A DNA stretch of 64,000 nt from an uncultured Candidatus Saccharibacteria bacterium (GCA_964552045.1 CAZKFF010000006.1:34657-98656); one strand, 5' to 3'. Positions 16,762 to 54,479 are shown, counted from the first letter of the stretch. Notes: a model not told the origin generated them from the sequence alone. Numbers and translations are program-made.

Positions 16762-16974
16762 TTAGTTTTTCTTGGGGGTATGTGCCTCCAAGAGCTGCAG
16801 GAAGTGCGTCAACGCTGCTTGTGCTTCTTGCAGTCGTCGCACCATCTTCCTGCTTGCGTCAGCGTACGCCCGCGGGAAGCTGGGGATGAGCTTGCCGTTG
16901 TCGGACATGGTGTCCACGTCGGTAAGTGAACGAGCCGCGACGTCGATCTTGGAGATCTGGATGGCTGCAGACAC
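16762..16974 (-). CDS. Hypothetical small protein (GTG start), weak
   Basis: 70-aa ORF with GTG start; its start overlaps the inverted tRNA-fMet fragment; no recognisable domain. Confidence 0.2.
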   Translation of the reverse strand: MSAAIQISKIDVAARSLTDVDTMSDNGKLIPSFPRAYADASRKMVRRLQEAQAALTHFLQLLEAHTPKKN

Positions 16975-16999
16975 CGGTTCGATTCCGGGCCTTTCGCAA
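16972..16999 (+). repeat. Inverted partial copy of the tRNA-fMet 3' end (T-arm plus acceptor)
   Basis: acaccggttcgattccgggcctttcgca vs tRNA 3' end CCCCGGTTCGATTCCGGGCCCCGCA; on the strand opposite the tRNA gene. Confidence 0.6.
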
Positions 17000-17043
17000 A
17001 GAAAAGAAAAAGACCTGCCAGTGGCAGGTCTTTTTCTTTTCTT
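16998..17043. terminator. Bidirectional terminator (gacctgccagtggcaggtc stem flanked by A/T runs on both sides)
   Basis: Perfect 8-bp stem with symmetric aaagaaaagaaaaa / tttttcttttctt flanks. Confidence 0.7.
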
Positions 17044-20391: not shown

Positions 20392-20466
20392 TGTCGATGT
20401 AGCTCAGTTGGTTAGAGCATCTCACTCATAAAGAGAAGGTCGCAGGTTCAATTCCCGCCATCGACA
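20392..20466 (+). tRNA. tRNA-Met (CAU) elongator-type (or tRNA-Ile2/lysidine)
   Basis: GTCGATG-TA-GCTC..GAGC-A-TCTCA-CTCATAA-AGAGA-AGGTC-GCAGG-TTCAATT-CCCGC-CATCGAC-A; close to E. coli elongator tRNA-Met. Confidence 0.75.
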
Positions 20467-20512
20467 CAAATACAAAAAGCCCCGACAAGGGCTTTTTGTA
20501 TTTGTGTCGATG
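20467..20512. terminator. Long perfect palindrome / bidirectional terminator that incorporates the tRNA 3' end
   Basis: tcgacacaaatacaaaaagcccc-gacaa-ggggctttttgtatttgtgtcga. Confidence 0.7.
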
Positions 20513-20638
20513 AAGAACAGTCTGGGAGACTGTTCGTCGGGAATTGAAGAGAGTGAGTATATCGCACGCAGCTTGCGAGTACGATACGAGCGACGGGGCA
20601 GCGAGTTCTTATGAGCTTTGAGAATTAGAACTGGCGCC

Positions 20639-20657
20639 ACTTCCCGCCATCGACACC
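20639..20657 (+). repeat. Direct partial copy of tRNA-Met 3' end (ttcccgccatcgacac)
   Basis: 16-nt identity with 20451-20466; followed by hairpin aaccgccgctgggcggtttt. Confidence 0.65.
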
Positions 20658-20699
20658 AAGAAACCGCCGCTGGGCGGTTTTCCACTGTCGCATAACCGC

Positions 20700-20745
20700 G
20701 CAGTATACAAAAAAGCCCCGTTCGGGGCTTTTTTGTATACTGCGC
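20700..20745. terminator. Palindromic bidirectional terminator adjoining tRNA-Asp
   Basis: ccgcgcagtatacaaaaaagccccgttcggggcttttttgtatactgcgcgg. Confidence 0.7.
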
Positions 20746-20816
20746 GGTAGACGGGACTTGAACCCGCAACCTCCCGCGTGACAGGCGGGTGCTCTAACCA
20801 GTTGAGCTACCACCGC
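20743..20816 (-). tRNA. tRNA-Asp (GUC)
   Basis: GCGGTGG..CCCGC-CTGTCAC-GCGGG..TTCAAGT..CTACCGC-G; G73 discriminator typical of Asp. Confidence 0.8.
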
Positions 20817-20878
20817 AGTGCGCAGAGTATAGCGGTTTTGCTCAATATTTGCAATTACTGCTGGTACAATACAAAGGT

Positions 20879-21484
20879 ATGCAATTCATCACTTCGTCCA
20901 GGGCCGTACTGGCGTTCAGCACAGCCTACCTCATCCTCGGCGGGCTTTATTTTCTTCAAGACCTGAACTTTGAATTTGTTATATATGTAGGAGTCATTGT
21001 CGCTGCATTTGGACTCTTATTCGGGACTCTACCGATAACAAAATTGCCCACTTCCATTCTCTGGCTTATCAGCATCTGGGGACTCCTTCACATACTCGGC
21101 GGATCGGTGCCGACCCCAGACGGCGTGCTGTTCGCATACCGCATCTATCCGTTCGTTGATCTCGGCGGGGAGTTCTATATTCTCAAATATGACCAGGTGG
21201 TACACGCATATCTCTACGGCGTTATGGCTGTGGTATTTTTTCATGTGCTTACCCGCACGATCAACGCCGCCGGCCCGGCGTGGATCATCGTGCTCCTTGC
21301 GGTGATGGCCGCTATGGGTGTATCAGCGCTCAACGAGATCATGGAATTCCTCATCGCCATATCGCTTGAGCGCAACGGCGTCGGCGGCTATGAGAATGCA
21401 ATGCTCGATCTCATCTTTAATTTCGGCGGGGCAGTTACGGGGATTGCTCTCCTGCTTCTCTTTAAGCACAATACACGGCAATGA
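20879..21484 (+). CDS. Polytopic membrane protein, hypothetical
   Basis: Multiple TM helices; start at ATG 20879 preferred (tacaat -10-like box and aaagg upstream). Confidence 0.5.
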   Translation: MQFITSSRAVLAFSTAYLILGGLYFLQDLNFEFVIYVGVIVAAFGLLFGTLPITKLPTSILWLISIWGLLHILGGSVPTPDGVLFAYRIYPFVDLGGEFYILKYDQVVHAYLYGVMAVVFFHVLTRTINAAGPAWIIVLLAVMAAMGVSALNEIMEFLIAISLERNGVGGYENAMLDLIFNFGGAVTGIALLLLFKHNTRQ

Positions 21485-21864
21485 CCGACGAAGCATTTTT
21501 GAAACTGGTCGATGCGGGCATTGATGCGCTGCGGGATGATGTCAGGGAAAGAATGGGCAACGTCGCCATCGTCATCGCAGACGAGCCGAGCATCGAGCAA
21601 AAAGAAGAGAACCGCATCAAGGACACCGATGTGCTTTTCGGACTGTATGAAGGCGTGCCGCAAACGGAGCGGGGAGTCGAGGACTTCCCGATGCTTCCCG
21701 ATAAGATAACCATTTTCAAGAATGCCATCCTGCACGCGTACAGCGATCCTGAAGATATCCGGCAGTGCGTGGAGAACACGGTCTGGCATGAGGTCGCCCA
21801 CCATTTTGGCATGGATGAGGATGAGGTGGCACGAGAGGAGTTCAGACGGGGAAAGACCCTGTAG
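21481..21864 (+). CDS. Zincin-like metallopeptidase (HExxH; DUF1025-like)
   Basis: WHEVAHHFG HExxH motif, 127 aa. Confidence 0.65.
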   Translation: MTDEAFLKLVDAGIDALRDDVRERMGNVAIVIADEPSIEQKEENRIKDTDVLFGLYEGVPQTERGVEDFPMLPDKITIFKNAILHAYSDPEDIRQCVENTVWHEVAHHFGMDEDEVAREEFRRGKTL

Positions 21865-22164
21865 CTATGCTTCGGGAGTTTCTTTCCGGCCACCATTTCT
21901 GAGTTCGAAGAACAAGAGTACTCCGCCTCCAAGCGCACCGGCAAAGCCAAGCGGTACGCTGTAGAACACAAGCCAGCCGAACATCCCCATAAGCGAGAGC
22001 AGTCCTCCTATGTCGCCAAAGATGGTTGGACACATAGAGGTGCCCGACTCATCGAGTTGACATCCGAACAGAGACGCCGCAAGACCAGCCAGCAGGACGC
22101 TTGCCAGAGGAAGGATCGCAGTTATGATGCTGAGTATGAGGATTCCTATGGCTGCTTTTTTCAT
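21865..22164 (-). CDS. Small membrane/secreted hypothetical protein
   Basis: MKKAAIGILILSIITAILPLASVLLAG signal/TM; Gly-rich C-terminal half. Confidence 0.45.
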   Translation of the reverse strand: MKKAAIGILILSIITAILPLASVLLAGLAASLFGCQLDESGTSMCPTIFGDIGGLLSLMGMFGWLVFYSVPLGFAGALGGGVLLFFELRNGGRKETPEA

Positions 22165-22203
22165 GATGTGTAATGCGCTACTGCTAATAAATCTTGCGAT
22201 TTG

Positions 22204-22276
22204 AGCCACCTCGCAGGATCGAACTGCGGACCTTTGCGTTACGAATGCAATGCTCTACCAACTGAGCTAAGGTGGC
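22204..22276 (-). tRNA. tRNA-Thr (CGU)
   Basis: GCCACCT..TTGCA-TTCGTAA-CGCAA..CGCAG-TTCGATC-CTGCG-AGGTGGC-T; A31·C39 mismatch. Confidence 0.65.
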
Positions 22277-22468
22277 GTGGCCTCTATCCTAGTATATGAG
22301 CACTTTGTTTTCAATGTATTATTTGGTATTCTTCCTGCGTCAGTTTGCAGCTACGAGTTCCACCTCTCTGCAAGCCGGCAGTGGCCACCGCGGTAGGACA
22401 ACGCCCATACAATGCGTTCGTTCAGCCAGGGTCTGCGACCGTTCTCCCCAGCGGTGGCCACTCTCTTC

Positions 22469-22541
22469 GCCAATGTAGCTCAGTTGGTAGAGCACGCCCA
22501 TGGTAAGGGCGAGGTCATCAGTTCAATCCTGATCATTGGCT
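22469..22541 (+). tRNA. tRNA-Thr (GGU)
   Basis: GCCAATG..CGCCC-ATGGTAA-GGGCG..ATCAG-TTCAATC-CTGAT-CATTGGC-T. Confidence 0.8.
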
Positions 22542-22546
22542 CACTA

Positions 22547-22572
22547 TGCAAACCCCGTAAGGGGTTTTTGCA
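22547..22572 (+). terminator. Terminator hairpin after tRNA-Thr
   Basis: gcaaaccccgtaaggggtttttgc. Confidence 0.7.
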
Positions 22573-22690
22573 TATATGCCAGTGATCGCACATCTGTTTC
22601 TTTAGAAACAGGAGCAAGGATTGAAAAGCTTTTGAGATATTTCTGGAGTGCGCGACAGAAATAACCAAAAGGTGTACTGAAACGGTACGT

Positions 22691-22714
22691 TTCAATCCTG
22701 ATCATTGGCTCACT
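22691..22714 (+). repeat. Direct partial copy of tRNA-Thr(GGU) 3' end (24 nt identical)
   Basis: ttcaatcctgatcattggctcact = 22521-22544; followed by hairpin aaaagcccgcgagggctttt. Confidence 0.7.
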
Positions 22715-22763
22715 CCAAAAGCCCGCGAGGGCTTTTGCTTGTTATTTGCTATACTGCTGGTGC

Positions 22764-23186
22764 ATGGAGGTCATACGCCTGACAGTGGAAAATATTGGAG
22801 CGCATCTGCAGGACTGCCTTCGCTTGCAGCGCCAGCTCATTAAGCCGGAAGAAACACCGAGTGAAGCCCTTTTTATGCGTACTGCGGAAGATGATCGCAC
22901 GTACATGCTCGGCCTTATAGAGGATGAGCACCTGGTGGGGCTCGGCGTAGTCGGATGCCTTGTTCACCCGGCGCACATTACTGCACATATTGACAATGTG
23001 GTCGTCGACGCTGCATACCGCGGACGCGGTTATTTTACGGTCATCATGGGCGCGCTTGAAGCGCAGGCAGCGCACTGGGGAGCTGACGAAGTAACGCTCA
23101 CCTGCTCACGCCCCGCAGTGCAGCCTTTGTACCTCAGACGAGACTATAAAGAGCGGGACACTACATGCTATAAAAAGAAGATCTAA
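22764..23186 (+). CDS. GNAT family N-acetyltransferase
   Basis: [34 protein letters not shown] acetyl-CoA binding motif. Confidence 0.7.
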
Positions 23187-24061
23187 TGCCTGAGGATATT
23201 CAAAAACGCATTGATGAGATTGAACATGCAATGCTGCAGAATGATTTTTGGAAGGACCCGCAGAAAGCCCAGGCTCTGTTCAAAGAGCTCGAAGAGCTGA
23301 AGGACGCAAAAGCGGGCAAGGGCAAATATGACCGGAGCAACGCAGTCATCACGATTGTTGCGGGGGCCGGAGGGGACGATGCGGAAGACTTCGCACGCAT
23401 GCTCGCGCACATGTATCAAAAGTATGCTCAGAAACGCGGGTGGGGCGTTTTTGAGCTTGATGCCAATGCCAATGACCATAACGGCTATCGCAACGTCACG
23501 TTTGAAGTGAGCGGCAAAGAGGCATACGGGACACTGCAGCATGAGTCCGGCGTGCACCGTCTGGTGCGCATATCGCCGTTTAACAGTAACGGCAAGCGGC
23601 AGACCTCATTCGTGCTGGTTGAAGTCTCTCCGCAAGTGCAGAGCGCAGGCGAGGTCGGTATTGCAGAGGAAGACATTGAGGTGAGCTTTGCGCGCTCGGG
23701 AGGCGCGGGAGGGCAGAACGTGAACAAGCGGGAGACCGCGGTGCGCATTGTGCATATCCCGACGAACATCTCGGTCAATGTCTCAAGCGAGCGCAGCCAG
23801 ATGCAGAACCGGGAGCGGGCGCTCGCGCTCCTTGCCGGCAAGGTGTTCGCATTCCGCGAGGTGCAGCGCAAGCGCGAACTGCAGGGGCTTTCTGTTGAGA
23901 AAACGCTCAAAATAGAATGGGGAAGCCAGATCCGTTCGTATGTGCTCCATCCATACCAAATGGTCAAAGATCACCGCACCAACACCGAAACAGCGAAGAT
24001 CGACGCGGTTTTGAACGGGGATATACAGCTATTTCTAGACGCGAGTGCGGAACTAAAGTAA
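23186..24061 (+). CDS. prfB: Peptide chain release factor 2, N-terminally short, no programmed frameshift site
   Basis: SPF motif ([15 protein letters not shown]) and GGQ ([11 protein letters not shown]); 291 aa. Confidence 0.85.
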
Positions 24062-24156
24062 AATGGGAAGCGTTGGTTATGAGTGTCGCCGCAGAGACGA
24101 TCTTCGCGTGTACGGGAAGGGTGGACAATGGCAACAGTGCATAACATTTTGTTTTT

Positions 24157-24837
24157 ATGATCTACTTCGATAATGTATCGAAACTGTACAACGGCGGTTC
24201 AATAGCACTTCAGGGTGTATCGTTCCAGGTTGCTCCGAAGGAGTTCGTATCCATCGTTGGACATTCAGGAGCGGGCAAGACCACGCTTCTGAAAATGCTC
24301 ATTGCTGAGGACAGGCCGACCGAGGGCCAGGTTTTCTTTGAATCACTCGACATACACAAGATACCCCGCACAAAACTTCCTAAATACCGGCGCAAGATCG
24401 GAACTGTCTTTCAGGACTTCAAACTGCTTCCGCACATGACCGCCTATGAGAACATCGCGTTTGCGATGGAAGCCAATGGCCGCTCCGACGAGGAGATCAA
24501 GGAGAATGTGCCACAGGCGCTCGCTCTGGTTGACCTTGAGGACAAGATATGGAATTTCCCCGGCGAGCTCTCCGGAGGAGAGAAGCAGCGTGTGGCGATC
24601 GCTCGTGCGATCGTCAACCAGCCGGACATCATCATTGCCGATGAGCCGACAGGGAACCTCGATCCGATCGCTACCTATGAAGTGGTACAGATACTCAAGA
24701 AGATCAATGACCTCGGTACGACAGTGATCATGACCACGCACAACAAGGGGGTCATTGATGAGCTTGAGCGCCGCGTCATTACCATGGACGAGGGCCGCAT
24801 CGTCCGCGACGACCAGGAAGGCAAATATGTTTTGTAA
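24157..24837 (+). CDS. ftsE: Cell-division ABC ATPase FtsE
   Basis: Walker [24 protein letters not shown] signature, followed by ftsX. Confidence 0.9.
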
Positions 24838-24866
24838 ACGGGGATAATTTCAAGTATTAATTTTTT

Positions 24867-25787
24867 ATGTGGACAGCAACCAAGCGCGTAATACGATCAG
24901 GTTTTGTGGGGTTTTGGCGCAATGCGTTCGTTTCCATTGCCGCTATTTTTGTGATGACTGTGGCGCTGTTTGTGGTCGGGTCTACCATGATGATCGACAA
25001 GCTCCTTGATGTCTCGCTTGAGAATATCCAGAGCAAGGTCGACATCAATGTTTACTTCGTCACCACAGCTGAACAGTCGGATATCGACGCGCTGCGATCC
25101 TCGCTTGAGGCGCTTCCGGACGTTGCAGAAGTGACGTTCACCTCGCGCGAAGACGCACTCGCTGCGTTCTCGGAGCGGCACAAGAATGACGAGACAATCA
25201 TGCAGGGACTTGAGGAGCTCGGCGACAATCCGCTCGGTGCATCGCTTTCGATCCGCGCCAAGCAGACATCCCAGTACGAAGGCATAGCCCAGTTCTTAAG
25301 TGACCAGCAGGCCGCTGAAGACCCCCAGCGTCCGCTCATCGACGAGGTCAACTTCGTGAAGAACAAGGATGCTATTGATAAGCTTACGAACATCATCAAC
25401 GCCGTCGAGCGCTCCACGTGGGTGACGATGATCGTGCTTGTGGCGGCATCGGTGCTGATCACTTTCAATACCATCCGGCTTGCGATCTATACCTCGCGCG
25501 AGGAGATCGCGGTCATGCGTCTGGTTGGAGCAAGCAATACCTTCATTCGGGGACCTTTCATGCTCCAGGGGATCATGTACGGGATCGCCGCGGGAGTCGT
25601 GGCGCTCCTCGTCCTCTATCCGCTTATTCTATGGATCGGGCCTGAGACGCAGTCATTCTTCCAGTTCAATCTCTTCGACTATTTCGTATCTGATTTCCCG
25701 CGCATATTCGGCATCATTGTCGGCAGCGGCATTGTGCTCGGCATAGCATCGAGCATACTCGCCGTAGCGCGATATCTGCACGTTTAG
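24867..25787 (+). CDS. ftsX: Cell-division permease FtsX
   Basis: N-terminal TM, periplasmic domain, 3 C-terminal TM helices; synteny with ftsE. Confidence 0.85.
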   Translation: MWTATKRVIRSGFVGFWRNAFVSIAAIFVMTVALFVVGSTMMIDKLLDVSLENIQSKVDINVYFVTTAEQSDIDALRSSLEALPDVAEVTFTSREDALAAFSERHKNDETIMQGLEELGDNPLGASLSIRAKQTSQYEGIAQFLSDQQAAEDPQRPLIDEVNFVKNKDAIDKLTNIINAVERSTWVTMIVLVAASVLITFNTIRLAIYTSREEIAVMRLVGASNTFIRGPFMLQGIMYGIAAGVVALLVLYPLILWIGPETQSFFQFNLFDYFVSDFPRIFGIIVGSGIVLGIASSILAVARYLHV

Positions 25788-25803
25788 AAGTAAGTACAGC
25801 ATA

Positions 25804-27465
<1,662 letters not shown>

Positions 27466-27473
27466 TATCCAGT

Positions 27474-27752
27474 ATGTTTCAAGGGAATTGGACCTGCAGC
27501 ACCTGCGGCAAACCCATAACCGAACTGCCGTTCGAGCCGAGAAATGCCGCCGGGCTTACGTGCAGGGAGTGTTACGCAAAGGGGAAGGAAGGCCAGAGTG
27601 GAAATGCACAAGGTCAGACCGACCGCCCAAAGGTGGAAGGCAACTGGCAATGCAGCGGATGCGGCGCCACCATTACGAGCCTGCCGTTCACTCCACGCGA
27701 CACATCAAACCTTCTGTGCATCGACTGCTATAAACAGCGAAAAGCGGGATAA
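27474..27752 (+). CDS. Tandem zinc-ribbon small protein (two GNWxCSxCG..LPF.PR...L.C..CY repeats)
   Basis: Internal duplication at protein and nt level, 4 Cys per repeat. Confidence 0.5.
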   Translation: MFQGNWTCSTCGKPITELPFEPRNAAGLTCRECYAKGKEGQSGNAQGQTDRPKVEGNWQCSGCGATITSLPFTPRDTSNLLCIDCYKQRKAG

Positions 27753-27755
27753 AAA

Positions 27756-27800
27756 GAGCACATAAAAAGCACCGGTGCAGACTGGTGCTTTTTATGTGCT
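27756..27800. terminator. Bidirectional terminator, 17-bp perfect stem
   Basis: agcacataaaaagcacc-ggtgcagact-ggtgctttttatgtgct. Confidence 0.75.
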
Positions 27801-27811
27801 CAGAGCATTAC

Positions 27812-28183
27812 TCACGCCTCAACCTCCGCAGTGAAACCGCCATAGGCCAGACGCTTCATATCGAACGGCATCGGCATATCTGTTCCGGCATACTTTTCAT
27901 CAAAGTGCGCCATCACTTTCTTGTTGATCGCGTTTCGTTCTGCCTTGGACTTAAACACGATAAAGGAGAACCAAACCTCCTCGTTTTCTTTTGCTTTCGC
28001 CATCTTGGGGAATGTGAAGGATACGTGCGGGGGTGTCATATCCTCAGCCCGGCATTCTTTATATTCGAGCGCACCGAACTGCATCCACACACCCGCTGCT
28101 TCCTTCGCCATCTTTTTGTACGCTGCTTTGTTTTCCTTGGGTATCACCATTACAAAACCATCGACGTATGTTGCCATATGCAT
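27812..28183 (-). CDS. DUF1428 family protein (YbaA-like)
   Basis: ..KSKAERNAINKKVMAHFDEKY.. family-typical; 123 aa. Confidence 0.55.
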   Translation of the reverse strand: MHMATYVDGFVMVIPKENKAAYKKMAKEAAGVWMQFGALEYKECRAEDMTPPHVSFTFPKMAKAKENEEVWFSFIVFKSKAERNAINKKVMAHFDEKYAGTDMPMPFDMKRLAYGGFTAEVEA

Positions 28184-28312
28184 GTGCTATGTTGATAATG
28201 AGCATAGTGTACCAGACATGCGTCTGAGGTATGCATGAAGAAATGCATCAACGGGAGCCTCCCCTGGACCGCGAAATTGTGCTATTCTGGTGCCCGCTGC
28301 AGCTGCATATTT

Positions 28313-28383
28313 TGGGGTATCGTCTAATGGTAGGACATCAGGTTTTGGTCCTGAGTATCGAGGTTCGAATCCTTGTACCCCAG
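28313..28383 (+). tRNA. tRNA-Gln (UUG)
   Basis: TGGGGTA-TC-GTCT..GGAC-A-TCAGG-TTTTGGT-CCTGA-GTAT-CGAGG-TTCGAAT-CCTTG-TACCCCA-G; close to E. coli tRNA-Gln. Confidence 0.8.
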
Positions 28384-29126
28384 CTCGTACTAAAAAACGC
28401 CAGTCTTGTACTGGTGTTTTTTAGTGCGTACAGCGGAAGGGTAGAGGATGAGAAAAGGTTGCCAGCTATTTTGAAAAAATAGCGACAACCTGTACAGATT
28501 CTGTAAGAATCGAATCCTTGTACCCCAGCTGTTAAGAAAAAACTCCCGACGAGGGAGTTTTTTCTGTTTACAAGCTGGAGGTCAGCATACATTATTATCG
28601 TAAAGAAACCGCCCCCACGGGGAGGGCGGTTGTTGCATGGCCTAGTTGAGGGGGTCCACGTGGAGACCACTTTCCCGTCGATGATGACCTGATTCGGAAA
28701 ACGATCGAAGACGCAGCCCTTTCGCGCCGCGCACGCCTCCTCAGGAGTCAGCATGCGTGACGGACGCGAGAAGTGGCCGAGCTCGGACGTCTGCAGTACC
28801 ACGAGGACTGTCAACAGGTCCTGGCACCTGACGCGTTCCCCGGTGTCGCTTTGCGCGATAAGGAGGAACAGGTAGCTCCCCGCCGGCGCTTTGAGCACCG
28901 CGGTGTCGCTTGTCTTAGTGTCCTCCGGCAGATCGATGAGGCTGCTCACCCAGAGGTGGGTGGCGCCGGAGGTTTCCCAGACGACCGTGATCTCCTCGCC
29001 TACTTCCGCGCGCGAGGGTTCGATGACGATCGAGCAGGAAAGTGATGCGGGTTCCTGTGCCGATGCCGTTGTGTACGGCAGAACGGCGACGAAGAGGGCG
29101 ATCAGAAACAGAGCGGTATGACGCAT
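28338..29126 (-). CDS. Secreted hypothetical protein (signal peptide MRHTALFLIALFVAVLPYTTASA); 3' end uncertain
   Basis: ORF has no in-frame stop until 28338 and so reads through a terminator-like hairpin (28598-28632), the tRNA-Gln fragment and the tRNA-Gln gene. The real C-terminus is probably near 28620 (frameshift or pseudogene possible). Confidence 0.35.
   Translation of the reverse strand: MRHTALFLIALFVAVLPYTTASAQEPASLSCSIVIEPSRAEVGEEITVVWETSGATHLWVSSLIDLPEDTKTSDTAVLKAPAGSYLFLLIAQSDTGERVRCQDLLTVLVVLQTSELGHFSRPSRMLTPEEACAARKGCVFDRFPNQVIIDGKVVSTWTPSTRPCNNRPPRGGGFFTIIMYADLQLVNRKNSLVGSFFLTAGVQGFDSYRICTGCRYFFKIAGNLFSSSTLPLYALKNTSTRLAFFSTSWGTRIRTSILRTKT
28510..28530 (+). repeat. Direct partial copy of tRNA-Gln 3' end (21 nt identical)
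   Basis: tcgaatccttgtaccccagct = 28365-28385; followed by hairpin aaaaaactcccgacgagggagtttttt. Confidence 0.7.
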
Positions 29127-39488: not shown

Positions 39489-39511
39489 TGCTCATTGTGT
39501 TGCATAATACT

Positions 39512-39932
39512 CCCGCGCAGATGATCGCCTCTGTTCTTGAACAGGGGAGGAAAGTCCGGACACGTTTTCGTGCGAAAGCAGGTCAAAAAAAGTAGCGGGT
39601 AACTCCCGTCCTTCGGCAACGCTCCATGCGTTCTTGAAGCGAGGTGCGAGCAGAGACGCCCGAAGCGAAAGCAAACGGGCATCCCGATTGGGATGAGCTC
39701 TCCTGGCAACAGGAGAGGTGAAACGGCTAAATCCTTACTCGCGTGCAAGGCCGCGCCCGGCCGCATTTTTGGAAAGACAGCCGTTTTCTTCCCAAAAATG
39801 CGGCCGGGAGAGCCGCAAGAGCTGTCTGGCAACAGGCAGCCCAGGTATATGATCATCCCAGGTATCTTTCGATCCTGGACAGAATCCGGCTTATCGCGTG
39901 AAGAATCGCCCCAGTTCTGGGGCTTTTCTTTT
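39512..39932 (+). ncRNA. rnpB: RNase P RNA (bacterial type A-like, reduced, with an extended helix insertion)
   Basis: GGAGGAAAGTCCGGAC (P4 5' strand), GCAAAC, GAGAGGTGAAACGGC, ACAGAATCCGGCTTATCG (P4 3' strand); terminator gccccagttctggggcttttc; boundaries approximate. Confidence 0.75.
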
Positions 39933-44204: not shown

Positions 44205-45992
44205 ATGAAGCCGCAGATAAGAAATTTCAGCATCATAGCCCATATTGACCATGGGAAGAGCACACTTGCTGACCGTATGCTCGAAGAGACGAAGACCGTC
44301 GAGGCGCGCCTGATGAAGGAACAGGTGCTCGATTCGATGGACCTGGAGCGCGAACGCGGTATCACCATAAAGATGCAGCCAGTACGCATGGCGCATACCT
44401 ACAAAGGTGCGTCGTACGAGCTCAATCTCATTGATACGCCGGGGCATATCGACTTTTCATACGAAGTATCCCGCGCCCTCAATGCAGTTGAGGGTGTGCT
44501 TCTGCTTGTTGATAGCACACAGGGGGTACAGGCGCAGACTCTGAGTGTCCTGCAGATGGCGAAGGATCAGCATCTTACCATCATTCCCGTGCTCACCAAG
44601 GTCGATGTCCCGCACGCCCGTATTGACGAGGTCGGACACGAGCTGCAAACGCTCCTCGGATGTGAGGAGTCATCCATTCTTCGCGTATCGGGGAAGACGG
44701 GGGAGGGGGTCGCCTCATTGCTTGACGCGATCTGTGAGCGCGTACCCGCACCGGAGCTGAAGGAAGACGCCCCTTTACGCGGCCTTGTTTTCGATTTCCA
44801 GTACTCAAACCACCGGGGCATCATCGTCTATCTGCGCATTTTCGATGGGGCGGTCAAGAAGGGTGACCAGCTGAAGTTCGCAGTGAGCGGAAAGACCTTC
44901 CAGGCGCTTGAGGTCGGCATGCTCGCCCCAAGTGAGGTGCCGGTCGGATCGCTTACCTCCGGCGAGATTGGCTATGTTGTAACCGGCATCAAAGAACCGG
45001 GAGTAGCCTCGGTAGGAGATACTATTATTTTTGAAAAGAGCGCTTCAGAGCCGCTTCCCGGGTACAAAGAAGCGCGGCCGGTGGTATGGGCGTCAGTGTT
45101 TCCTGAGAGCCAGGATGACTTCACCATCCTTCGCCAGGCGCTTGACCGGCTGAAGCTTTCGGACTCATCACTGTCGTATGAAGAAGAGTCTTCGGGAGTG
45201 CTCGGTCGGGGGTTCCGATGCGGCTTTTTGGGCATGCTCCATCTTGAGATCATCACCGAGCGTCTGCGGCGGGAATTCAATGTTGAACTGATCATCACGG
45301 CGCCATCCATTTCATATGAGATAACCGACCCCGAACATGGTGTTGAGGAGATATATGCCGCGTCTCGCTTTCCGGATTTTCATGACAAGGTAACAGTGCG
45401 CGAGCCATGGATACTTGCGCAGATCATCATGCCGCCCGACTATATGGGGAACGTCATGACGCTCTTGTACGACCATGAAGCGACCGTGCTGGAGACAGAG
45501 GTGTTCGGGGATGGTCGAACACTTTTGACTGCGGAAATGCCGCTGCGTGAGCTGATGCGCGGCTTCTTTGATAAACTCAAGAACGCTTCAAGCGGCTATG
45601 CATCACTCTCGTACGAGATCGCGGAGATGCGTCCGGCATCGGTCGCCCGGCTTGATGTGTTCGTCGCCGAAGAGCTTGTACCGGCCTTCTCACGGGTTGT
45701 CGGCATCCGCAGAGCGGAGACCGAAGCGAAAGCGGTCGTTGAAAAACTCTACAATACGCTGCCGCGCCAGATGTTCGTCGTTAAGATACAGGCGAAAACG
45801 CTCGGACGCATCGTAGCGTCCCGCTCGCTGTCTGCGATGAAGAAGGATGTGACCGGGTACCTGTACGGCGGCGATATCACTCGCAAGATGAAGCTGCGCG
45901 AGAAGCAGAAGAAGGGGAAGAAACGGATGCTCGCCTACGGTAAGGTCAATATTCCTCCTGAGGTATTCATGAAAATGGTAAAAGAAGACTAA
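44205..45992 (+). CDS. lepA: Elongation factor 4 (LepA)
   Basis: NFSIIAHIDHGKSTLADR G1 motif and LepA C-terminal domain. Confidence 0.95.
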   Translation: MKPQIRNFSIIAHIDHGKSTLADRMLEETKTVEARLMKEQVLDSMDLERERGITIKMQPVRMAHTYKGASYELNLIDTPGHIDFSYEVSRALNAVEGVLLLVDSTQGVQAQTLSVLQMAKDQHLTIIPVLTKVDVPHARIDEVGHELQTLLGCEESSILRVSGKTGEGVASLLDAICERVPAPELKEDAPLRGLVFDFQYSNHRGIIVYLRIFDGAVKKGDQLKFAVSGKTFQALEVGMLAPSEVPVGSLTSGEIGYVVTGIKEPGVASVGDTIIFEKSASEPLPGYKEARPVVWASVFPESQDDFTILRQALDRLKLSDSSLSYEEESSGVLGRGFRCGFLGMLHLEIITERLRREFNVELIITAPSISYEITDPEHGVEEIYAASRFPDFHDKVTVREPWILAQIIMPPDYMGNVMTLLYDHEATVLETEVFGDGRTLLTAEMPLRELMRGFFDKLKNASSGYASLSYEIAEMRPASVARLDVFVAEELVPAFSRVVGIRRAETEAKAVVEKLYNTLPRQMFVVKIQAKTLGRIVASRSLSAMKKDVTGYLYGGDITRKMKLREKQKKGKKRMLAYGKVNIPPEVFMKMVKED

Positions 45993-46106
45993 ATGTCTTC
46001 TTTTACGACTTTGACTGATATTTCTGGAAGAATGAACAGAAATATCGACAAAGTGTACAGCTCCTGTAAGGAGGAAGAGCGACGGCCGCTGTAAGCGGAA
46101 GAAGAC

Positions 46107-46140
46107 CAAAAAAGAGCCGGACGCAGGTCCGGCTCTTTTC
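46107..46140. terminator. Bidirectional terminator
   Basis: aaaaaagagccggacgcaggtccggctcttttcc. Confidence 0.7.
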
Positions 46141-46263
46141 CTAGAAGAAGCTTCCGCTTCCGCCGGAATAGGCGAAGATCATGCTGAGTATAATGAGTAT
46201 GGCAATGGTTATCCAGACCCATTTAATGGTTGATTTGGTCCGTTTGTGGAAAAGAAAGCTCAT
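46141..46263 (-). CDS. Candidate 40-aa single-TM miniprotein
   Basis: MSFLFHKRTKSTIKWVWITIAILIILSMIFAYSGGSGSFF; stop abuts the terminator; below the ORF-track length threshold. Confidence 0.3.
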   Translation of the reverse strand: MSFLFHKRTKSTIKWVWITIAILIILSMIFAYSGGSGSFF

Positions 46264-46310
46264 GAAGCAGTACGTTATCGTTTCATTAAAGAATGATAAG
46301 ATAATACCAT

Positions 46311-47037: not shown

Positions 47038-47109
47038 GCTTTCATAGTTCAATGGATAGAACAACTCCGTCCTAAGGAGGAAATCCTGGTTCGATTCCGG
47101 GTGAGAGCA
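47038..47109 (+). tRNA. tRNA-Arg (CCU)
   Basis: GCTTTCA..ACTCC-GTCCTAA-GGAGG..CCTGG-TTCGATT-CCGGG-TGAGAGC-A. Confidence 0.7.
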
Positions 47110-47110
47110 C

Positions 47111-47152
47111 AAAACGAGAAAAAGCTCCCTGCGGAGCTTTTTCTCGTTTTGT
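47111..47152. terminator. Bidirectional terminator, 18-bp perfect stem
   Basis: aaaacgagaaaaagctcc-ctgc-ggagctttttctcgtttt. Confidence 0.75.
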
Positions 47153-47359
47153 GAAGCGGAGACATGTTTTTTGCTCTTCCTTGAGCAAAAACGGTCGAGC
47201 TGGGGCAGCACATACTTATGAGCGTAAGCGAATTAGTGATCTGCGCCAACAAGGTTGCGAGTACTTAGGATCTGAAGAGTAAAGCACTGGATCATTCCTA
47301 GTAACTCATGGCCACACGCATCTACAAAGACCAAAATAACGTCTGCTATAATAATCCCC

Positions 47360-47799: not shown

Positions 47800-47848
47800 G
47801 ACAGAACAGAAAACACCCATTCTTAAGAATGGGTGTTTTCTGTTCTAG
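47800..47848. terminator. Long palindromic terminator
   Basis: cagaacagaaaacacccattcttaagaatgggtgttttctgttctag. Confidence 0.75.
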
Positions 47849-47959
47849 CAAGCAAAAGGCTTTGCTTGCGTGCCGTTGTGCTGACCGCAGCGATGCCGGA
47901 GGCGAGCGAGGTGGGGTCGAGAGTACTTGCTAGAATTGGAGCTTTGCGAACAATTATAG

Positions 47960-48058
47960 TTAGTAACTCGTGACCACCAATAATGAGAAAATTGCTTAGA
48001 AACTCGTGTCGAGCCTGTTTTTTGCTTAGTAACTCGTGACCGCGCCTGATTCTGAGCT
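47960..48058 (+). repeat. Three tandem-ish copies of motif TTAGTAACTCGTGACC plus degenerate tRNA-Phe 3' fragments
   Basis: Motif copies at 47960-47975, 47995-48010, 48026-48041; gcgcctgattctgagct (48042-48058) and tcgagcctg (48009-48017) match the tRNA-Phe 3' end. Confidence 0.6.
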
Positions 48059-53269: not shown

Positions 53270-54124
53270 TTAGAGAAAAGTGAATGGAAGATCGCTAAAC
53301 GACTCTACACGTATACTTGAAGCGTTCTTATGTCCGCCGCCGCCGTACTTTTCGGCCATTGCTCGTACATCAACATCCCCGTTGCTCCGCAGCGAGCAGT
53401 GCACCTGCCCGTCGTAGCGGTAGTATACGATGGCCATTTCGATACCGCCCTCCGTGCCGTTAAGGTTTGACAGTTCGTGTGCGACTATCGAACGGTATAT
53501 GCGCGCGCAGTTCACTGCATATATCTCATGCCCTTCAAACAGCACCTTCTCGCGGAATCCGAGAAGTTTCTGCACGAGCTTGTCCTCAAACCCGGCAATG
53601 GCAGCTCCGTGCGATATGAACTTATTAAAAAGCTCCCGGTCCTCGAGATTTTTATTAAGCTGATCCCACGTTTCAAAATCCTGGGTATATTCTCCGAGTG
53701 CCGCGCCGAACTCCCGGTTGAATTCCATCCTGAATCTCCAGAGGTCGTGGTCCTCGATGTACAGCAACAGCTTCGGCACTTCGGTTTCCGGATGGAAATA
53801 CTGCCATGCAAGCACCGCCCCGGAATGGTTCATGTCAAAGACATTGCCCTCAAACGAGGTCACCGCTTCTCTTGCAGTTTCGTGATGATCAATGACGACA
53901 ACGGACTTGTTGTGATGCCGGAGTAGCTCGAGATCAGGCTTCTTGTAGCTGTAATCGACGATGTATATTTCTTTGCCCTGGAGTCCTTCGGGAACCGGAT
54001 CCTGGGTCTTGCGGGGGATATAGCTCGCGGCATCGCCAAATTTCTTCCAGGCTGCGTAGGCTGCGCCAAATCCGTCGCGGCACTGGTCATGGTAGATGAC
54101 CACGATCTTCTTTAAATTTTGCAT
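53270..54124 (-). CDS. DHH-family phosphoesterase (NrnA-like oligoribonuclease/pAp phosphatase)
   Basis: VIDHHE (DHH) and GGGH (DHHA1) motifs. Confidence 0.8.
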   Translation of the reverse strand: MQNLKKIVVIYHDQCRDGFGAAYAAWKKFGDAASYIPRKTQDPVPEGLQGKEIYIVDYSYKKPDLELLRHHNKSVVVIDHHETAREAVTSFEGNVFDMNHSGAVLAWQYFHPETEVPKLLLYIEDHDLWRFRMEFNREFGAALGEYTQDFETWDQLNKNLEDRELFNKFISHGAAIAGFEDKLVQKLLGFREKVLFEGHEIYAVNCARIYRSIVAHELSNLNGTEGGIEMAIVYYRYDGQVHCSLRSNGDVDVRAMAEKYGGGGHKNASSIRVESFSDLPFTFL

Positions 54125-54387
54125 GGAAAGAAGTATAGCATTTCAGGGCTTGATTCACGGCGATTATGAAGTAGTCACAAGTTACTAATTATTTAAGTCC
54201 AAGTATTCCTTAAATAATAAGTACTCGCGACCCCGCCTCGCTCATACATATCGCTGCAACTCGCACCTATTTTCAATCGCGAAGCGATTGACCTGCCACG
54301 CGCAGCGCGCGTGGTGATACTAACTTTCTGCGTACGCATTGGAGATTGATTGCGCCTCGGGTGCGTGCTCCGCTAACGCTCCGCACG

Positions 54388-54479
54388 CCGCAAACCCAAA
54401 AATCCCTTACCTTCAAAAAGCGGATGGGGGGTGCAGGGGGGAGCCGCCAAAAAGTTGAAAGGGATTTTTGGGTTTGCGG
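54388..54479. repeat. Large imperfect hairpin (20-bp stem, ~50-nt loop) within a GC-rich hairpin-dense block 54273-54720
   Basis: ccgcaaacccaaaaatccct ... agggatttttgggtttgcgg; additional perfect hairpins at 54582-54612, 54640-54657, 54682-54710. Confidence 0.6.

Follow-up and report, generated by a model that had tools for sequence, protein, structure and literature searches.

Integration at tRNA 3′ ends by tyrosine or serine recombinases leaves attL/attR repeats, and the units described here share with these a direct repeat running from T-loop to 3′ end, an intact tRNA, tandem accretion at the same tRNA and polymorphic sites. They differ in that the insert is 100-190 nt long, lacks a gene, is conserved, structured and covarying, and contains an extra inverted copy of the target, and in that one unit type follows a protein gene, where the arms vary along with the local sequence. 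Small structured intergenic repeats and MITEs (REP/BIME/REPIN, pneumococcal BOX, Neisseria Correia, Rickettsia RPE) carry element-owned terminal inverted repeats which are the same in every copy, and their target duplications are short and of fixed length. Like these, the units are small, non-coding, multi-copy, modular and hairpin-forming, occupy 3′ regions inside transcription units, fall into discrete subfamilies and have a patchy distribution in related genomes; unlike them, they have arms made from the target, which differ per target and measure 12-27 nt.

CTX-phi attP(+), recombined by XerCD, and integron attC have stems built around an invariant recombinase core (dif-like or R/L boxes). 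The units resemble both in that a stem reproduces the double-stranded target, with one arm continuous and the other bearing extrahelical elements, in that the inverted copy adjoins the regenerated direct copy after integration, and in forming arrays, but their stem sequence is whatever the target offers, no recombinase is linked to them and their loops look RNA-like. Attenuators and riboswitch expression platforms use mutually exclusive helices (1:2 versus 2:3), and the inverted segment of the units similarly has a choice of two identical pairing partners, one on each side, with a structured domain between; however, the units lie at the 3′ end of the RNA that would be regulated rather than in a leader, and neither ligand, terminator competition, Rfam match nor downstream regulated gene could be identified. 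Template switching (quasi-palindrome) creates and maintains hairpins and expands inverted-repeat arms (PMC8794818, PMC13100816). Like the units, its products include perfect reverse-complement copies of adjacent sequence, made in a single event, and it can keep paired arms matched without stepwise compensation, but template switching is a process rather than an element, and accounts for neither cassettes, strand bias nor the three-copy order. In archaeal split, permuted and non-canonically interrupted tRNAs the 3′ part is supplied separately (PMC3978253, PMC4090602); in the predicted read-through fold of the units the tRNA body is similarly completed by a 3′ segment, set apart from it by an extended structured insert close to the T-loop, although the tRNA gene preceding a unit is whole and has its own terminator, the organism is a bacterium and no bulge-helix-bulge or splicing is implied.

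Anatomy of the units behind tRNA genes and lepA

In the stretch of DNA analysed (the window, 64,000 nucleotides), we confirmed the exact 3′-end copies which a sequence-only reading had reported downstream of tRNA-Met, tRNA-Thr(GGU) and tRNA-Gln (16, 24 and 21 nt, at offsets of 127-175 nt), together with a hairpin and T-tract 3′ of both tRNA and copy at all three; 21 of the 24 nt at tRNA-Thr(GGU) lie within the tRNA, the other 3 nt of identity being trailer. ARAGORN counted nine tRNAs in the window instead of ten, and the spacers, said to have no obvious common sequence, proved related, those of Thr and Gln matching one covariance model with 83 and 76 bits.

Units measure ~100-190 nt and separate a gene, nearly always a tRNA and once lepA, from its original terminator, starting at the gene's 3′ end. 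Their order is X, terminator hairpin or 5-nt loop, X′, conserved cassette (module A or B), X again, original terminator, where X is the final 12-27 nt of the upstream gene and X′ its Watson-Crick inverted copy, often split by a hairpin, P2. Module A consists of P4 and P5, and module B is an alternative cassette. The features at the three tRNAs are:

20393-20467, +, tRNA-Met(CAU), no encoded CCA (ARAGORN; Rfam 68.9 bits); its final ~20 nt form segment X
20459-20512, +, perfect palindrome with 24-nt arms, read from the sequence: tRNA 3′ end, first terminator hairpin, then X′ = GTGTCGATG (20504-20512)
20515-20535, +, Met hairpin P2, GAACAGTC-TGGGA-GACTGTTC
20536-20548, +, Met second antisense segment t1′ = GTCGGGAATTGAA, complementary to T-loop and T-stem 3′ strand
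20589-20639, +, Met module B cassette core (..CGGGGCAGCGAGTTCTTA..TTAGAACTGGCGCC; nhmmer profile, E=2e-6), nearly identical to the L006 cassette
20641-20656, +, tRNA-Met direct copy (DR), 16/16, 3′ arm of the unit's closing helix
20661-20680, +, Met terminator after DR
22469-22542, +, tRNA-Thr(GGU) (ARAGORN)
22546-22573, +, Thr first terminator
22578-22587, +, Thr X′ segment t2′ = GCCAGTGATC
22588-22615, +, Thr hairpin P2
22616-22625, +, Thr X′ segment t1′ = AAGGATTGAA
22629-22693, +, Thr module A cassette (covariance model R1 match 22614-22702, 83 bits; covariation)
22629-22671, +, Thr long hairpin P4, apical GGAGTGCGCGACAG
22679-22693, +, Thr P5, GAAACG-GTA-CGTTTC, its 3′ strand taking in the T-loop TTC of the copy
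22691-22714, +, tRNA-Thr direct copy, 24/24 including 3 trailer nt
22716-22737, +, Thr terminator after copy, abutting the -10 box of the downstream gene
28313-28384, +, tRNA-Gln(UUG) (ARAGORN)
28386-28511, +, Gln unit, terminator to P5 (R1 match 28443-28520, 76 bits)
28386-28431, +, Gln first terminator
28439-28449, +, Gln weak X′ = GGGTAGAGGAT
28457-28490, +, Gln module A P4, subtype GGTTGCC..GACAACC
28497-28511, +, Gln P5
28510-28530, +, tRNA-Gln direct copy, 21/21, followed by a terminator (28537-28563)

The unit behind lepA has the same architecture and no tRNA-like sequence:

45978-46139, +, non-tRNA unit behind lepA (R1 match 45995-46083, 54 bits)
45978-45989, +, X, the last four lepA codons, GTAAAAGAAGAC
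between X and X′, +, loop TAAAT, containing the stop codon
45995-46006, +, X′ = GTCTTCTTTTAC
46008-46054, +, module A P4
46060-46073, +, P5
46086-98, +, second P5-like hairpin
46099-46106, +, direct copy AAGAAGAC
46108-46139, +, terminator

The lepA unit, at least, is no assembly artefact, since it is base-for-base the same in two other assemblies (L146 and L147). Four lepA lineages have four different X, each with matching X′ and copy, and across lineages with LepA proteins 84-89% identical the unit is orthologous and structurally maintained, with compensatory changes in P4 and X/X′, X:X′ pairing that is 12/12 Watson-Crick in three lineages and a stop codon which, in the lineages compared, always lies within the hairpin loop.

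Filled and empty orthologous sites exist among relatives, in agreement with the earlier view of the tRNA 3′-end copies as insertion-associated duplications, and the terminator after the copy sits where the sole terminator of empty sites sits. At lepA two empty sites were found, and L155 equals L151 plus an insert of ~94 nt with a 13-nt duplication. The clean insertion boundary is given by lepA alone, because no strain-level filled/empty pair was found at the tRNA sites and the window's best relatives are 75-77% identical in anchor proteins. The sequence-only reading had held that conservation of sequence and position would argue for function; this applies in part, through the orthologous, maintained lepA unit.

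Covariation, prevalence and exchange of cassettes

Segment t1′ had at most two mismatches to its own tRNA in 25 of 29 units (null 17%), and t2′ in 14 of 29 (null 8%). X′ complements X rather than repeating the tRNA 5′ strand: it has A for Asp G6.U67 and T for fMet C1.A72. In P3, P4 and P5, 92% of cells were paired, against 34-50% when slid, and cassette helix pairs with double changes amounted to 25/30 and 29/30 (0/500 shuffles), bearing in mind that covariance-model-fitted alignments lean toward the model structure and that the sequences are mutually related. Covariance model matches comprised 27 strong and 37 module A, while module B gave 43. Among non-Watson-Crick cells G:T exceeded A:C (32 versus 12, p=0.004), the cassette loops were strand-asymmetric and 63-69% purine, and a GA..GA motif was present on the module strand of 13/27 units, compared with 0/27 for the reverse complement. 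P4 contains few G.U pairs (~2-3%) and numerous X:X′ arms have Watson-Crick pairs throughout, as would be expected equally of templating at the DNA level and of selection on RNA.

An exact copy of at least 13 nt of the tRNA's own 3′ tail was present within 450 nt downstream in 32 of 202 tRNAs (window plus 80 related loci), compared with 7/742 when tails were matched to another tRNA's downstream region and 3/198 in the own upstream region (Fisher p=2e-16). An independent metagenome set gave 28 of 141, so that overall 16-20% of sampled tRNAs show the pattern versus ~1% of controls. The pattern is lineage-wide in Paceibacteria (CPR), a group of tiny-genome bacteria. TRNA-adjacent units were on the same strand as the tRNA in 65 of 67 cases and on the opposite strand in two (p=3e-17), one unit being inverted relative to its tRNA.

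Cassettes swap between otherwise identical frames, and units form arrays. L090 and L096 share one identical frame with different modules, and the L106 array contains three P4 subtypes, the DR-terminator-X′-P2 blocks between them being 100% identical. P4 subtypes are discrete, spread over different tRNAs and genomes irrespective of host phylogeny, and hardly differ even where the pyrG of the genomes compared is only 72-76% identical. We found no candidate gene or recombinase linked to the units, and none of them contained an integrase remnant; searches of viral, phage and plasmid sequences were negative, and nothing similar appeared in Rfam or in phage and plasmid collections. We know of no enzyme or mechanism which makes an inverted and a direct target copy in one step.

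Proposed target-templated inserts and alternative explanations

Our tentative reading, to which we give as a whole a probability of about 40%, is that the units are a previously undescribed family of small, modular, non-coding structured inserts, templated on their targets and tolerated or used as 3′-trailer RNA. The inserted DNA would acquire its arms from the target, possibly in a target-primed or guided insertion step, or alternatively through replication template switching, which is known to generate and homogenise inverted repeats. Transcribed through read-through from the upstream gene, the unit would act as an RNA in which X′ may clamp the real gene 3′ end into a long hairpin, while the downstream copy would substitute for that end by pairing with the tRNA 5′ acceptor strand. 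The tRNA body would thereby still be completable, which would explain why wobbles are tolerated in X′ but the copy keeps its full identity with the tRNA end.

That the unit is transcribed, that read-through passes the first terminator and that the RNA adopts the swapped fold are predictions. In modelled read-through RNAs (tRNA plus unit), the domain-swap fold, with X′ on the real tRNA end and the copy paired with the tRNA 5′ strand, is the MFE structure in 40/42 units and beats the native fold in stability in 42/42 (by a median of -9.0 kcal/mol), judging from an energy model that leaves out co-transcriptional kinetics, modifications and the tertiary structure of the tRNA. Scrambling X′ brings the median to -4.2 kcal/mol (37/42 paired comparisons, Wilcoxon p=6e-7), the model preferring the swap by ~4 kcal/mol even then. 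The idea of compensation is limited to tRNAs, as the lepA copy cannot substitute for anything. Target-templated inserts could be purely selfish and self-compensating, or co-opted for 3′-end protection, processing or quality control.

It is unlikely, if worth serious attention, that the units are instead non-mobile and vertically inherited, a cis-regulatory switch of three strands (X, X′ and the copy of X) which, from the 3′ trailer, would govern how the preceding tRNA or mRNA is matured, stabilised or terminated, the cassette serving as sensor or protein-binding platform and patchiness arising from loss and gene conversion. The covarying helices, conserved purine-rich loops, same-strand bias, placement upstream of a terminator and lepA orthology with its looped stop codon would all be expected of such an RNA, and two mutually exclusive pairings exist in silico. 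However, P4 subtypes cross tRNAs and genomes regardless of phylogeny, empty sites are clean with target duplication upon insertion, tandem arrays mix cassette subtypes, one unit is inverted, and nothing regulated or sensed was identifiable.

A rather improbable alternative is that of miniature integrative elements moving as folded single-stranded DNA, in which the X′:X stem would mimic the double-stranded target and a host tyrosine recombinase would recombine it with the chromosomal copy, much as in CTX-phi attP(+)/XerCD or at integron attC sites, while the hairpin of the first terminator would form the closed base of a dumbbell-like circle. A single step would then account for the direct copy with the inverted copy beside it and for an uninterrupted 3′ arm opposite a 5′ arm broken by bulged hairpins, as well as tandem arrays, fixed orientation and single-strand-specific pairing, and the palindromes extending through the first terminator fit. 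Nevertheless, arm sequences are unrelated between targets and follow local variants in the four lepA lineages, which a sequence-specific recombinase core would not predict; moreover, neither a linked recombinase, circular junctions nor viral, phage or plasmid relatives were found, and GA loops rich in purines are rather a hallmark of RNA.

Improbable, too, is a functionless, immobile by-product of template switching, a mechanism known elsewhere (PMC8794818, PMC13100816), which at stable hairpins (terminators, cassettes) would extend palindromes by copying the neighbouring gene end first inverted and then direct. Perfect arms such as those at tRNA-Met and lepA, the cassette-free frames at tRNA-fMet and tRNA-Asp and a window genome rich in very long palindromes are as expected from such a process, but it leaves unexplained the conserved cassettes, covariation, conserved unpaired motifs, 65:2 strand bias, and the X-X′-cassette-X order with its persistence across deep Paceibacteria with streamlined genomes.

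There is little likelihood that the copy is a free tRNA 3′ fragment serving as decoy for an RNase, CCA-adding enzyme or tRNA-targeting toxin. It does reproduce the tRNA end through the discriminator plus 1-3 further nt, and CCA follows the tRNA-Met copy, though absent from the gene; this CCA is not general (Thr, Gln), and all predicted folds show the copy paired along its whole length with no free end, its T-loop part pairing with P5 and t1′ and hence offering no T-arm mimic, while the lepA unit is not tRNA-like at all.

The att-like scars of mostly deleted tyrosine-integrase elements proposed in the sequence-only reading are rejected as scarcely credible: the repeats do span T-loop to just beyond the tRNA end as in classical attL/attR, but the spacers are intact, homologous, structured and covarying rather than decaying and free of integrase remnants, tyrosine-integrase integration yields no inverted copy, and a T-arm-reading recombinase cannot account for lepA. 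The related proposal that tRNA ends are integration hot spots in this lineage held, with genuine islands at the same tRNAs (L009, L016; possibly L041). These have their own degenerate attR and lie between the tRNA and a pre-existing unit; the one at tRNA-Gln (L009, 4.7 kb, encoding a large serine recombinase) is located upstream of intact units.

Partial, decayed and rearranged units at other tRNAs

The weaker or inverted copies claimed at tRNA-fMet and tRNA-Phe are real, and further traces were found at other tRNAs in the window:

16974-17043, -, tRNA-fMet trailer: terminator (16999-17043), then inverted copy (16974-16999)
20696-20747, -, tRNA-Asp 3′ end, terminator and 7-8-nt inverted copy (extended palindrome)
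47108-47300, +, tRNA-Arg trailer (module B by nhmmer, E=5e-7)
47108-47153, +, tRNA-Arg terminator palindrome, extending 3 nt into the tRNA
47195-47249, +, tRNA-Arg module B cassette; a second B-like hairpin is also present
47801-48057, +, tRNA-Phe trailer (module B by nhmmer, E=7e-17)
47801-47846, +, tRNA-Phe terminator
47848-47869, +, tRNA-Phe P2
47873-47884, +, tRNA-Phe inverted copy CCGTTGTGCTGA
47906-47976, +, tRNA-Phe module B
48009-48017 and 48045-48057, +, tRNA-Phe direct copy in two pieces, TCGAGCCTG and CCTGATTCTGAGC
54172-54241, -, module B cassette ~500 nt downstream of tRNA-Val (nhmmer, E=1.4e-7)

The tRNA-fMet trailer, with an interrupted inverted copy of 26 nt (18 nt exact) and neither cassette nor direct copy, represents a partial or truncated frame; L006 and L017 have complete fMet units. 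The tRNA-Asp trailer (20696-20747) has no cassette; Asp units are common in relatives. No direct copy is recognisable in the tRNA-Arg trailer (47108-47300), which is a decayed unit, and the tRNA-Phe trailer is a rearranged one, a duplicated module-B 3′ arm preceding each piece of the copy. The cassette downstream of tRNA-Val, the only tRNA in the window with encoded CCA, is surrounded by very long hairpins and followed by a weak T-arm-like remnant.

Anatomy of the units behind tRNA genes and lepA

Duplicates of tRNA 3' ends are present downstream of tRNA-Met, tRNA-Thr(GGU) and tRNA-Gln, as the sequence-only reading of the window had described, with copies that start 174, 149 and 126 nt past the tRNA ends called by ARAGORN (175, 150 and 127 had been claimed) and a T-tract hairpin after both tRNA and copy in all three cases. 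The inverted copy behind tRNA-fMet (16974-16999) and the imperfect copy behind tRNA-Phe (48045-48057) proved equally real. The surrounding housekeeping genes (prfB, ftsE, ftsX, pyrG, lepA) belong to a chromosome of the Patescibacteria/Paceibacteria with a G+C content of 52%, and the nearest public counterpart of its pyrG has 77% protein identity. ARAGORN finds nine tRNA genes here, one fewer than the ten previously counted in the 64 kb. The tRNA genes upstream of the duplicates are complete (57-70 bits against the Rfam tRNA model), and every one has a terminator of its own.

When aligned side by side and folded, the units show a common architecture. Read from 5' to 3', a unit begins with the last nucleotides of the upstream gene (X), behind which lies the first terminator hairpin. 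Next come t2', which repeats the acceptor 3' strand in inverted form, in many units a hairpin of variable stem with the loop YGGGR (P2), and t1' (GGAnTCGAA), which does the same for the 3' strand of T-loop and T-stem. The cassette, a direct copy of X and a second terminator complete the unit; t2' and t1' together make up X', the inverted copy of X. Four units of the window are the following.

20393-20680 (+), tRNA-Met unit, module B cassette; copy at 20641-20656, 16/16 nt identical
22469-22737 (+), tRNA-Thr(GGU) unit, module A cassette; copy at 22691-22714, 24/24 nt identical
28313-28563 (+), tRNA-Gln unit, module A cassette; copy at 28510-28530, 21/21 nt identical
45978-46139 (+), lepA unit, module A cassette

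Two mismatches or fewer to the own tRNA were found for t1' in 25/29 units and for t2' in 14/29, against 17% and 8%, respectively, when other tRNAs served as the null. The X' segments are Watson-Crick complements of the tRNA 3' strand and not copies of the 5' strand, as seen where G6.U67 of tRNA-Asp gives A in X' and C1.A72 of tRNA-fMet gives T. At several tRNAs the first terminator and the inverted copies form a single long perfect palindrome, with arms of 24 nt at tRNA-Met. The 3' strand of a unit is one unbroken stretch of ~27 nt that pairs successively with three 5' segments, with hairpins branching between them.

The main cassettes are of at least two types. Module A consists of a long hairpin, P4, and a short one, P5 (GAAAC-TGTAA-GTTTC), with TAC..GA..GTA invariant, and the 3' strand of P5 takes in the first T-loop bases of the copy. 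Module B, with helices such as GGGGTCGAGAGTACTTAG..CTTAGTAACTCGTGACC, also left relics behind tRNA-Arg, tRNA-Phe and tRNA-Val in the window, and a third type, module C, occurs only in relatives, at tRNA-Gln(CUG) of three of the loci compared with the window (L040, L044 and L059). The spacers, of 100-215 nt and without a gene-sized ORF, had been thought to share no obvious sequence; they are in fact related, since covarying helices and conserved motifs recur in their interiors at different tRNAs and in different genomes.

Several further features of the tRNA genes and their downstream regions were noted. Eight of the nine tRNA genes in the window lack an encoded CCA, C directly following the discriminator base in each of these, and only tRNA-Val (54743-54818) encodes it in full. 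CCA does follow the copy of the tRNA-Met end (20641-20659), although the gene has ACAA. Behind tRNA-Arg (47255-47300) and tRNA-Phe (47985-48045), the module B 3' arm (TTAGTAACTCGTGACC and variants) recurs several times by itself, which suggests local partial duplications of cassette arms. Downstream of tRNA-Val, ~650 nt (54080-54745, -) are unusually dense in hairpins, with a palindrome whose arms of ~30 nt (CGCCGCAAACCCAAAAATCCCTT...AAGGGATTTTTGGGTTTGCGGCG) enclose a loop of ~45 nt, and several more long GC-rich hairpins. In relatives, the intact tRNA-Gln is preceded, at a distance of 18-29 nt, by a partial copy of itself (about positions 19-53) that passes directly into a P2-like hairpin, then module A, then the 3' strand of T-loop and T-stem (L012 8330-8478, L006 16410-16554, L139 18120-18212), an arrangement that looks like a cassette within the T-loop of a tRNA pseudogene. 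Four tRNA-Met genes of relatives (L020 6669-6743, L028 3565-3639, L065 323-397, L106 1660-1734) have a non-canonical T-loop, ATCGTTC or ATCATTC, in which positions 54 and 58 are apparently exchanged (A54/T58); in their units the P5 5' strand (GATCC), t1' (..ACGAT) and the copy all carry the matching variant.

Prevalence, covariation and strandedness

We searched 80 pyrG neighbourhoods from related species, together with the window, for exact copies of at least 13 nt of a tRNA's own 3' tail within 450 nt downstream. Such copies follow 32/202 tRNAs, compared with 7/742 when the tail was sought downstream of another tRNA and 3/198 when it was sought in the tRNA's own upstream region (Fisher p=2e-16). 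The excess was replicated in a second, independent set of 63 metagenome loci (28/141 tRNAs), and the pattern is not confined to the genome of the window. The tRNAs that carry tail copies in these sets are Met, fMet, Thr(GGU), Gln, Asp and Trp, and occupancy is patchy, the same syntenic tRNA being occupied in some lineages and not in others. The relatives compared are all metagenome-assembled; the closest pyrG was 77% identical in the genome scan and 75% in the metagenome scan, and neither returned a close relative of the window or a strain-level pair of filled and empty tRNA sites. L146 and L147 are of the same strain as the window and identical to it at lepA, and the loci L115 and L116 differ solely by a 1-nt indel in the copy.

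The core of module A, aligned from ten sequences, has 92.3% of its cells paired, against 36-50% with the register slid, and two-sided changes in 25/30 pairs, values reached by 0/500 shuffles. P4, which is unrelated to the tRNA sequence, covaries at 13/15 pairs. A covariance model built from this alignment gave 27 strong matches in the first 1.22 Mb searched and 37 in the next 0.51 Mb. In 32 model-aligned matches, double changes affect 29/30 pairs and 92% of cells are paired against 34-47% when slid (again 0/500 shuffles), figures to be read with the mutual relatedness of the sequences and the bias of model-fitted alignments towards the model structure in mind. Over the 1.73 Mb, module A has 64 matches and module B 43. 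For module B, the MAFFT alignment lacked the quality that a formal test requires (its consensus fold has 9 pairs at -2.6 kcal/mol), and a sequence profile and inspection by eye were used instead: 27/43 profile matches lie within 450 nt downstream of a same-strand tRNA, and the lower helix shows compensatory changes (GAGAGTAC/GTAACTCG versus GACAGCAC/GTGACTGG).

Just downstream of tRNA 3' ends, 65 modules lie on the tRNA strand and 2 on the opposite one (p=3e-17). Non-Watson-Crick cells in the cassette helices are G:T more often than A:C (32 versus 12, p=0.004), unpaired regions are 63-69% purine and just 10-11% C, and 13/27 units have an apical GA..GA motif (e.g. GGAGCGAAGCGAAC) on the module strand, against 0/27 on the reverse complement. 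Therefore, the pairing that matters is that of a single-stranded molecule with the orientation of the upstream gene, which would most naturally be RNA, single-stranded DNA also being compatible. G.U pairs are rare in P4, and in the X':X arms G.U and A.C are about equally frequent (15 versus 13).

Target-tracking arms and turnover

The covariance model also hit 45995-46083, directly past the stop codon of lepA, where a module A unit follows the same rule as the tRNA units although the sequence is not that of a tRNA. X' is followed by P4, P5, the direct copy and the terminator. We retrieved lepA neighbourhoods from relatives and compared their units.

Table. Arms of lepA units in four lineages; LepA identity is relative to the window.
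Locus; LepA identity; X; loop; X'; copy
Window; 100%; GTAAAAGAAGAC (last four codons); TAAAT; GTCTTCTTTTAC (perfect inverted copy); AAGAAGAC
L148; 89%; TTAAGGAAGGAG; ACTAA; CTCCTTCCTTAA; GGAAGGAAGG
L153; 85%; ATCAAGGATGAC; TAAAC; GTCATCCTTGAT; AAAGATGAT (degenerate; a second unit follows)
L155; 84%; AAGGATGAC; TAAAT; GTCATCTTT; AAGGATGACTAAA

Since X' and the copies follow the local gene ends in all four lineages, the upstream sequence, coding sequence included, either templates the arms or is what they are kept matched to, and a recombinase that reads T-arms cannot account for the units. Two relatives, L151 and L154, have no unit at lepA. The comparison with empty sites that the sequence-only reading had proposed can be made here: the filled site of L155 equals the empty site of L151 plus an insert of ~94 nt directly past the stop codon, 13 nt being duplicated. 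The window, L148 and L155 share one P4 subtype, with compensatory changes in the stems, and L153 has the GGTTGCC subtype, found elsewhere at tRNAs. A small convergent ORF (~40 aa, hydrophobic; 46140-46270, -) between lepA and a DivIC-like gene is kept in all relatives (L146, L148, L151, L154 and L155), with or without a lepA unit.

The P4 subtypes GGTTGCC..GACAACC, CTTTTGAG..CCAAAAG and CCTGATT..AATCAGG occur at differing tRNAs in differing genomes, and are near-identical across genomes whose pyrG is just 72-76% identical. L106 has three units behind tRNA-Asp with three distinct P4 subtypes, between which a block of ~85 nt (copy, terminator, X' and P2) repeats with 100% identity, and in the tRNA-Thr unit of L011 the module is inverted between the same arms. 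L090 and L096 are 99.4% identical through tRNA-Asp, first terminator, X', P2 and t1', and then change abruptly to module B and module A, respectively. A simple cassette swap was rejected here, because the right flank is merely 87% identical; the pair is a recombination mosaic with its breakpoint at ..CTTGAA. These subfamilies, arrays, empty sites and cassette exchanges point to the turnover of a mobile or at least recombining element, and not to a static gene. The terminator behind the Thr(GGU) copy adjoins the downstream -10 box, as the sole terminator does at empty sites, which suggests that the inserted DNA comprises the first terminator, X', the cassette and one copy of X.

Predicted folds and possible origins

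In order to examine the RNA form, we folded full read-through transcripts of the three tRNA units of the window. In the predicted minimum free energy (MFE) structures, X' pairs with the real tRNA 3' end, lengthening the first terminator hairpin, and the downstream copy forms 7/7 pairs with the 5' acceptor strand of the tRNA, whose D and anticodon arms are preserved. The swapped fold is predicted to be more stable than the native one in 42/42 non-redundant tRNA-plus-unit cases, by a median of -9.0 kcal/mol under an energy model that omits tertiary structure and kinetics, and the MFE builds the acceptor stem from the copy in 40/42. With X' scrambled the swap is still favoured (median -4.2 kcal/mol), which weakens the energy argument for the swap; only ~5 kcal/mol can be ascribed to X' (37/42 paired comparisons, Wilcoxon p=6e-7). 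Over the whole segment from the T-loop to the discriminator the copy matches the tRNA end exactly, whereas X' tolerates wobbles and mismatches, possibly because in the swapped read-through RNA the copy would have to serve as the 3' part of the tRNA.

Beyond the architecture, prevalence, covariation, strand bias, filled and empty sites, target-tracking arms and cassette exchange established by these comparisons, our leading reading, to which we give a probability of about 0.4, is that the units are small structured inserts with target-templated arms. The unit would be transcribed together with the upstream gene, and the spare 3' end would render the insert harmless or useful. Template switching during replication creates and homogenises hairpin arms (PMC8794818, PMC13100816), and could plausibly keep X' perfectly matched.

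A more far-reaching proposal, which we regard as possible but doubtful, is that the units form a previously unknown class of Paceibacteria (CPR) elements, small structured cassettes that insert themselves at tRNA gene 3' ends, occasionally at those of mRNAs, writing an antisense and a spare sense copy of the last 12-27 nt; in RNA, the antisense arm would capture the real tRNA end and the spare copy would complete the tRNA. Such a class would represent a self-compensating insertion or a device co-opted for tRNA 3'-end maturation or quality control, and would point either to a novel mechanism of target-templated insertion or to a tRNA put together in a novel way, with a spare part from downstream.

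That the units are a purely vertical cis-regulatory three-strand switch is unlikely, yet it is the most probable of the rivals; the alternative pairings predicted for X' speak for it and the turnover of the cassettes against it. A still less probable origin is a mini-integrative element of folded single-stranded DNA, of the CTX-phi or attC kind. CTX-phi attP and integron attC sites resemble the units in that a hairpin stem reproduces a double-stranded target, as the predicted X':X helix of ~20 bp with its bulged hairpins does, but they have a fixed recombinase-binding core, whereas the stems of the units are unrelated between targets and follow the lepA variants. We consider it slightly less probable again that palindrome extension left a functionless by-product, a proposal that the perfect palindromes at several tRNAs favour but that leaves the covarying helices of the cassettes unexplained.

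Other known families were compared. MITE/REP-like elements are small, non-coding, multi-copy and hairpin-forming, as the units are, but have conserved element-specific terminal inverted repeats, whereas the arms of the units are the local gene end and differ among the Met, Thr, Gln, Asp, Trp and lepA sites. In tRNA-like structures (the tRNA-like domain of tmRNA, YrlA, viral TLS) the acceptor stem is stacked on the T-arm and the T-loop is free; the units lack this, the T-loop bases of the copy being paired with P5 and t1', with covariation, and the T-stem 5' strand being missing beside the copy. A free decoy, with the copy acting on its own, is very improbable for a segment paired in this way. 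Group I and archaeal bulge-helix-bulge introns interrupt the tRNA gene and have to be taken out before a tRNA results, unlike the units, which lie behind complete tRNAs, and Rfam scans gave no group I match. No Rfam 15 model matched the units at gathering threshold over the whole window, and permissive scans of 16.8-28.7 kb and 45.9-48.15 kb yielded only sub-threshold generic hairpins; otherwise the Rfam scans returned tRNAs, RNase P RNA and generic hairpin noise. The most conserved motif of module A had two chance hits in IMG/VR, inside coding sequence and with no tRNA nearby, blastn against phage and plasmid collections gave no match to the units, and nothing relevant was found in the literature on CPR structured RNAs, tRNA-linked elements and Patescibacteria tRNA introns. 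Small peptides were discounted because the ORFs in the spacers are short and, by eye, non-conserved, and a primer-binding site for tRNA-primed reverse transcription because X' lacks a preceding TGG, which would complement CCA. Self-cleaving ribozymes, retrons, T-boxes, Y RNAs, HEARO and omega RNAs were set aside for want of Rfam support and linked protein genes and for wrong size or topology. The units fit none of the tested families, at least one defining feature failing in each.

The weakest account, that the units are scars of decayed islands, can be dismissed almost entirely. The att-like reading proposed earlier stands in so far as direct tRNA 3' repeats (16-24 nt) flank inserted DNA, but no remnant of an integrase or element gene lies between the repeats, the units contain no genes, and the interiors, which a decayed remnant would leave unconstrained and unrelated between sites, are conserved in helices and motifs. 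Real islands do occur at these ends. In L009 (12199-16990), a 4.7-kb island separates tRNA-Gln from a pair of typical units, its insertion lying exactly between them. The island has a degenerate attR of its own (TTCGTCCCAGACAGCCAGC) in front of the first unit and carries the gene of a 500-aa large serine recombinase, the ORF of which extends into the tRNA on the opposite strand. In L016 (between 11797 and 19508), a 7.7-kb insertion lies likewise exactly between tRNA-Gln and structured units, so the small units are separate entities that were there before the islands. Another kind of tRNA-end duplication was seen in L041 (519-2640), where a single ABC-transporter gene (594 aa) lies between 37-nt direct repeats of the 3' part of tRNA-Thr(CGU), with neither structured unit nor recombinase.

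If the leading reading of target-templated inserts holds, about one fifth of the sampled tRNA genes in a large and little-understood bacterial radiation would precede an uncharacterised structured element, and a strongly covarying structural family, of RNA or DNA, would be added to those known. It would pose the puzzle of how inverted and direct copies of a target arise and stay matched, even against coding sequence, and raises the possibility that a spare 3' segment located downstream can complete a tRNA body. In CPR genomes, partial tRNA repeats are not automatically to be taken for prophage or island boundaries, and predictions of tRNAs, terminators and islands in these genomes should allow for such units, which the covariance model from this analysis offers a means of annotating.

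Two further features of the window were recorded. The RF2 (prfB) ORF (23186-24061, +), which directly adjoins a GNAT acetyltransferase ORF (22746-23186), has just 291 aa, and because its PCRF match begins at profile position 94, the N-terminal part is missing or in another frame; a programmed +1 frameshift is usual in prfB. Rfam additionally detected a bacterial type A RNase P RNA (39508-39909, +), whose score of 105.8 bits against a gathering score of 100 marks it as divergent, as is frequent in CPR genomes.
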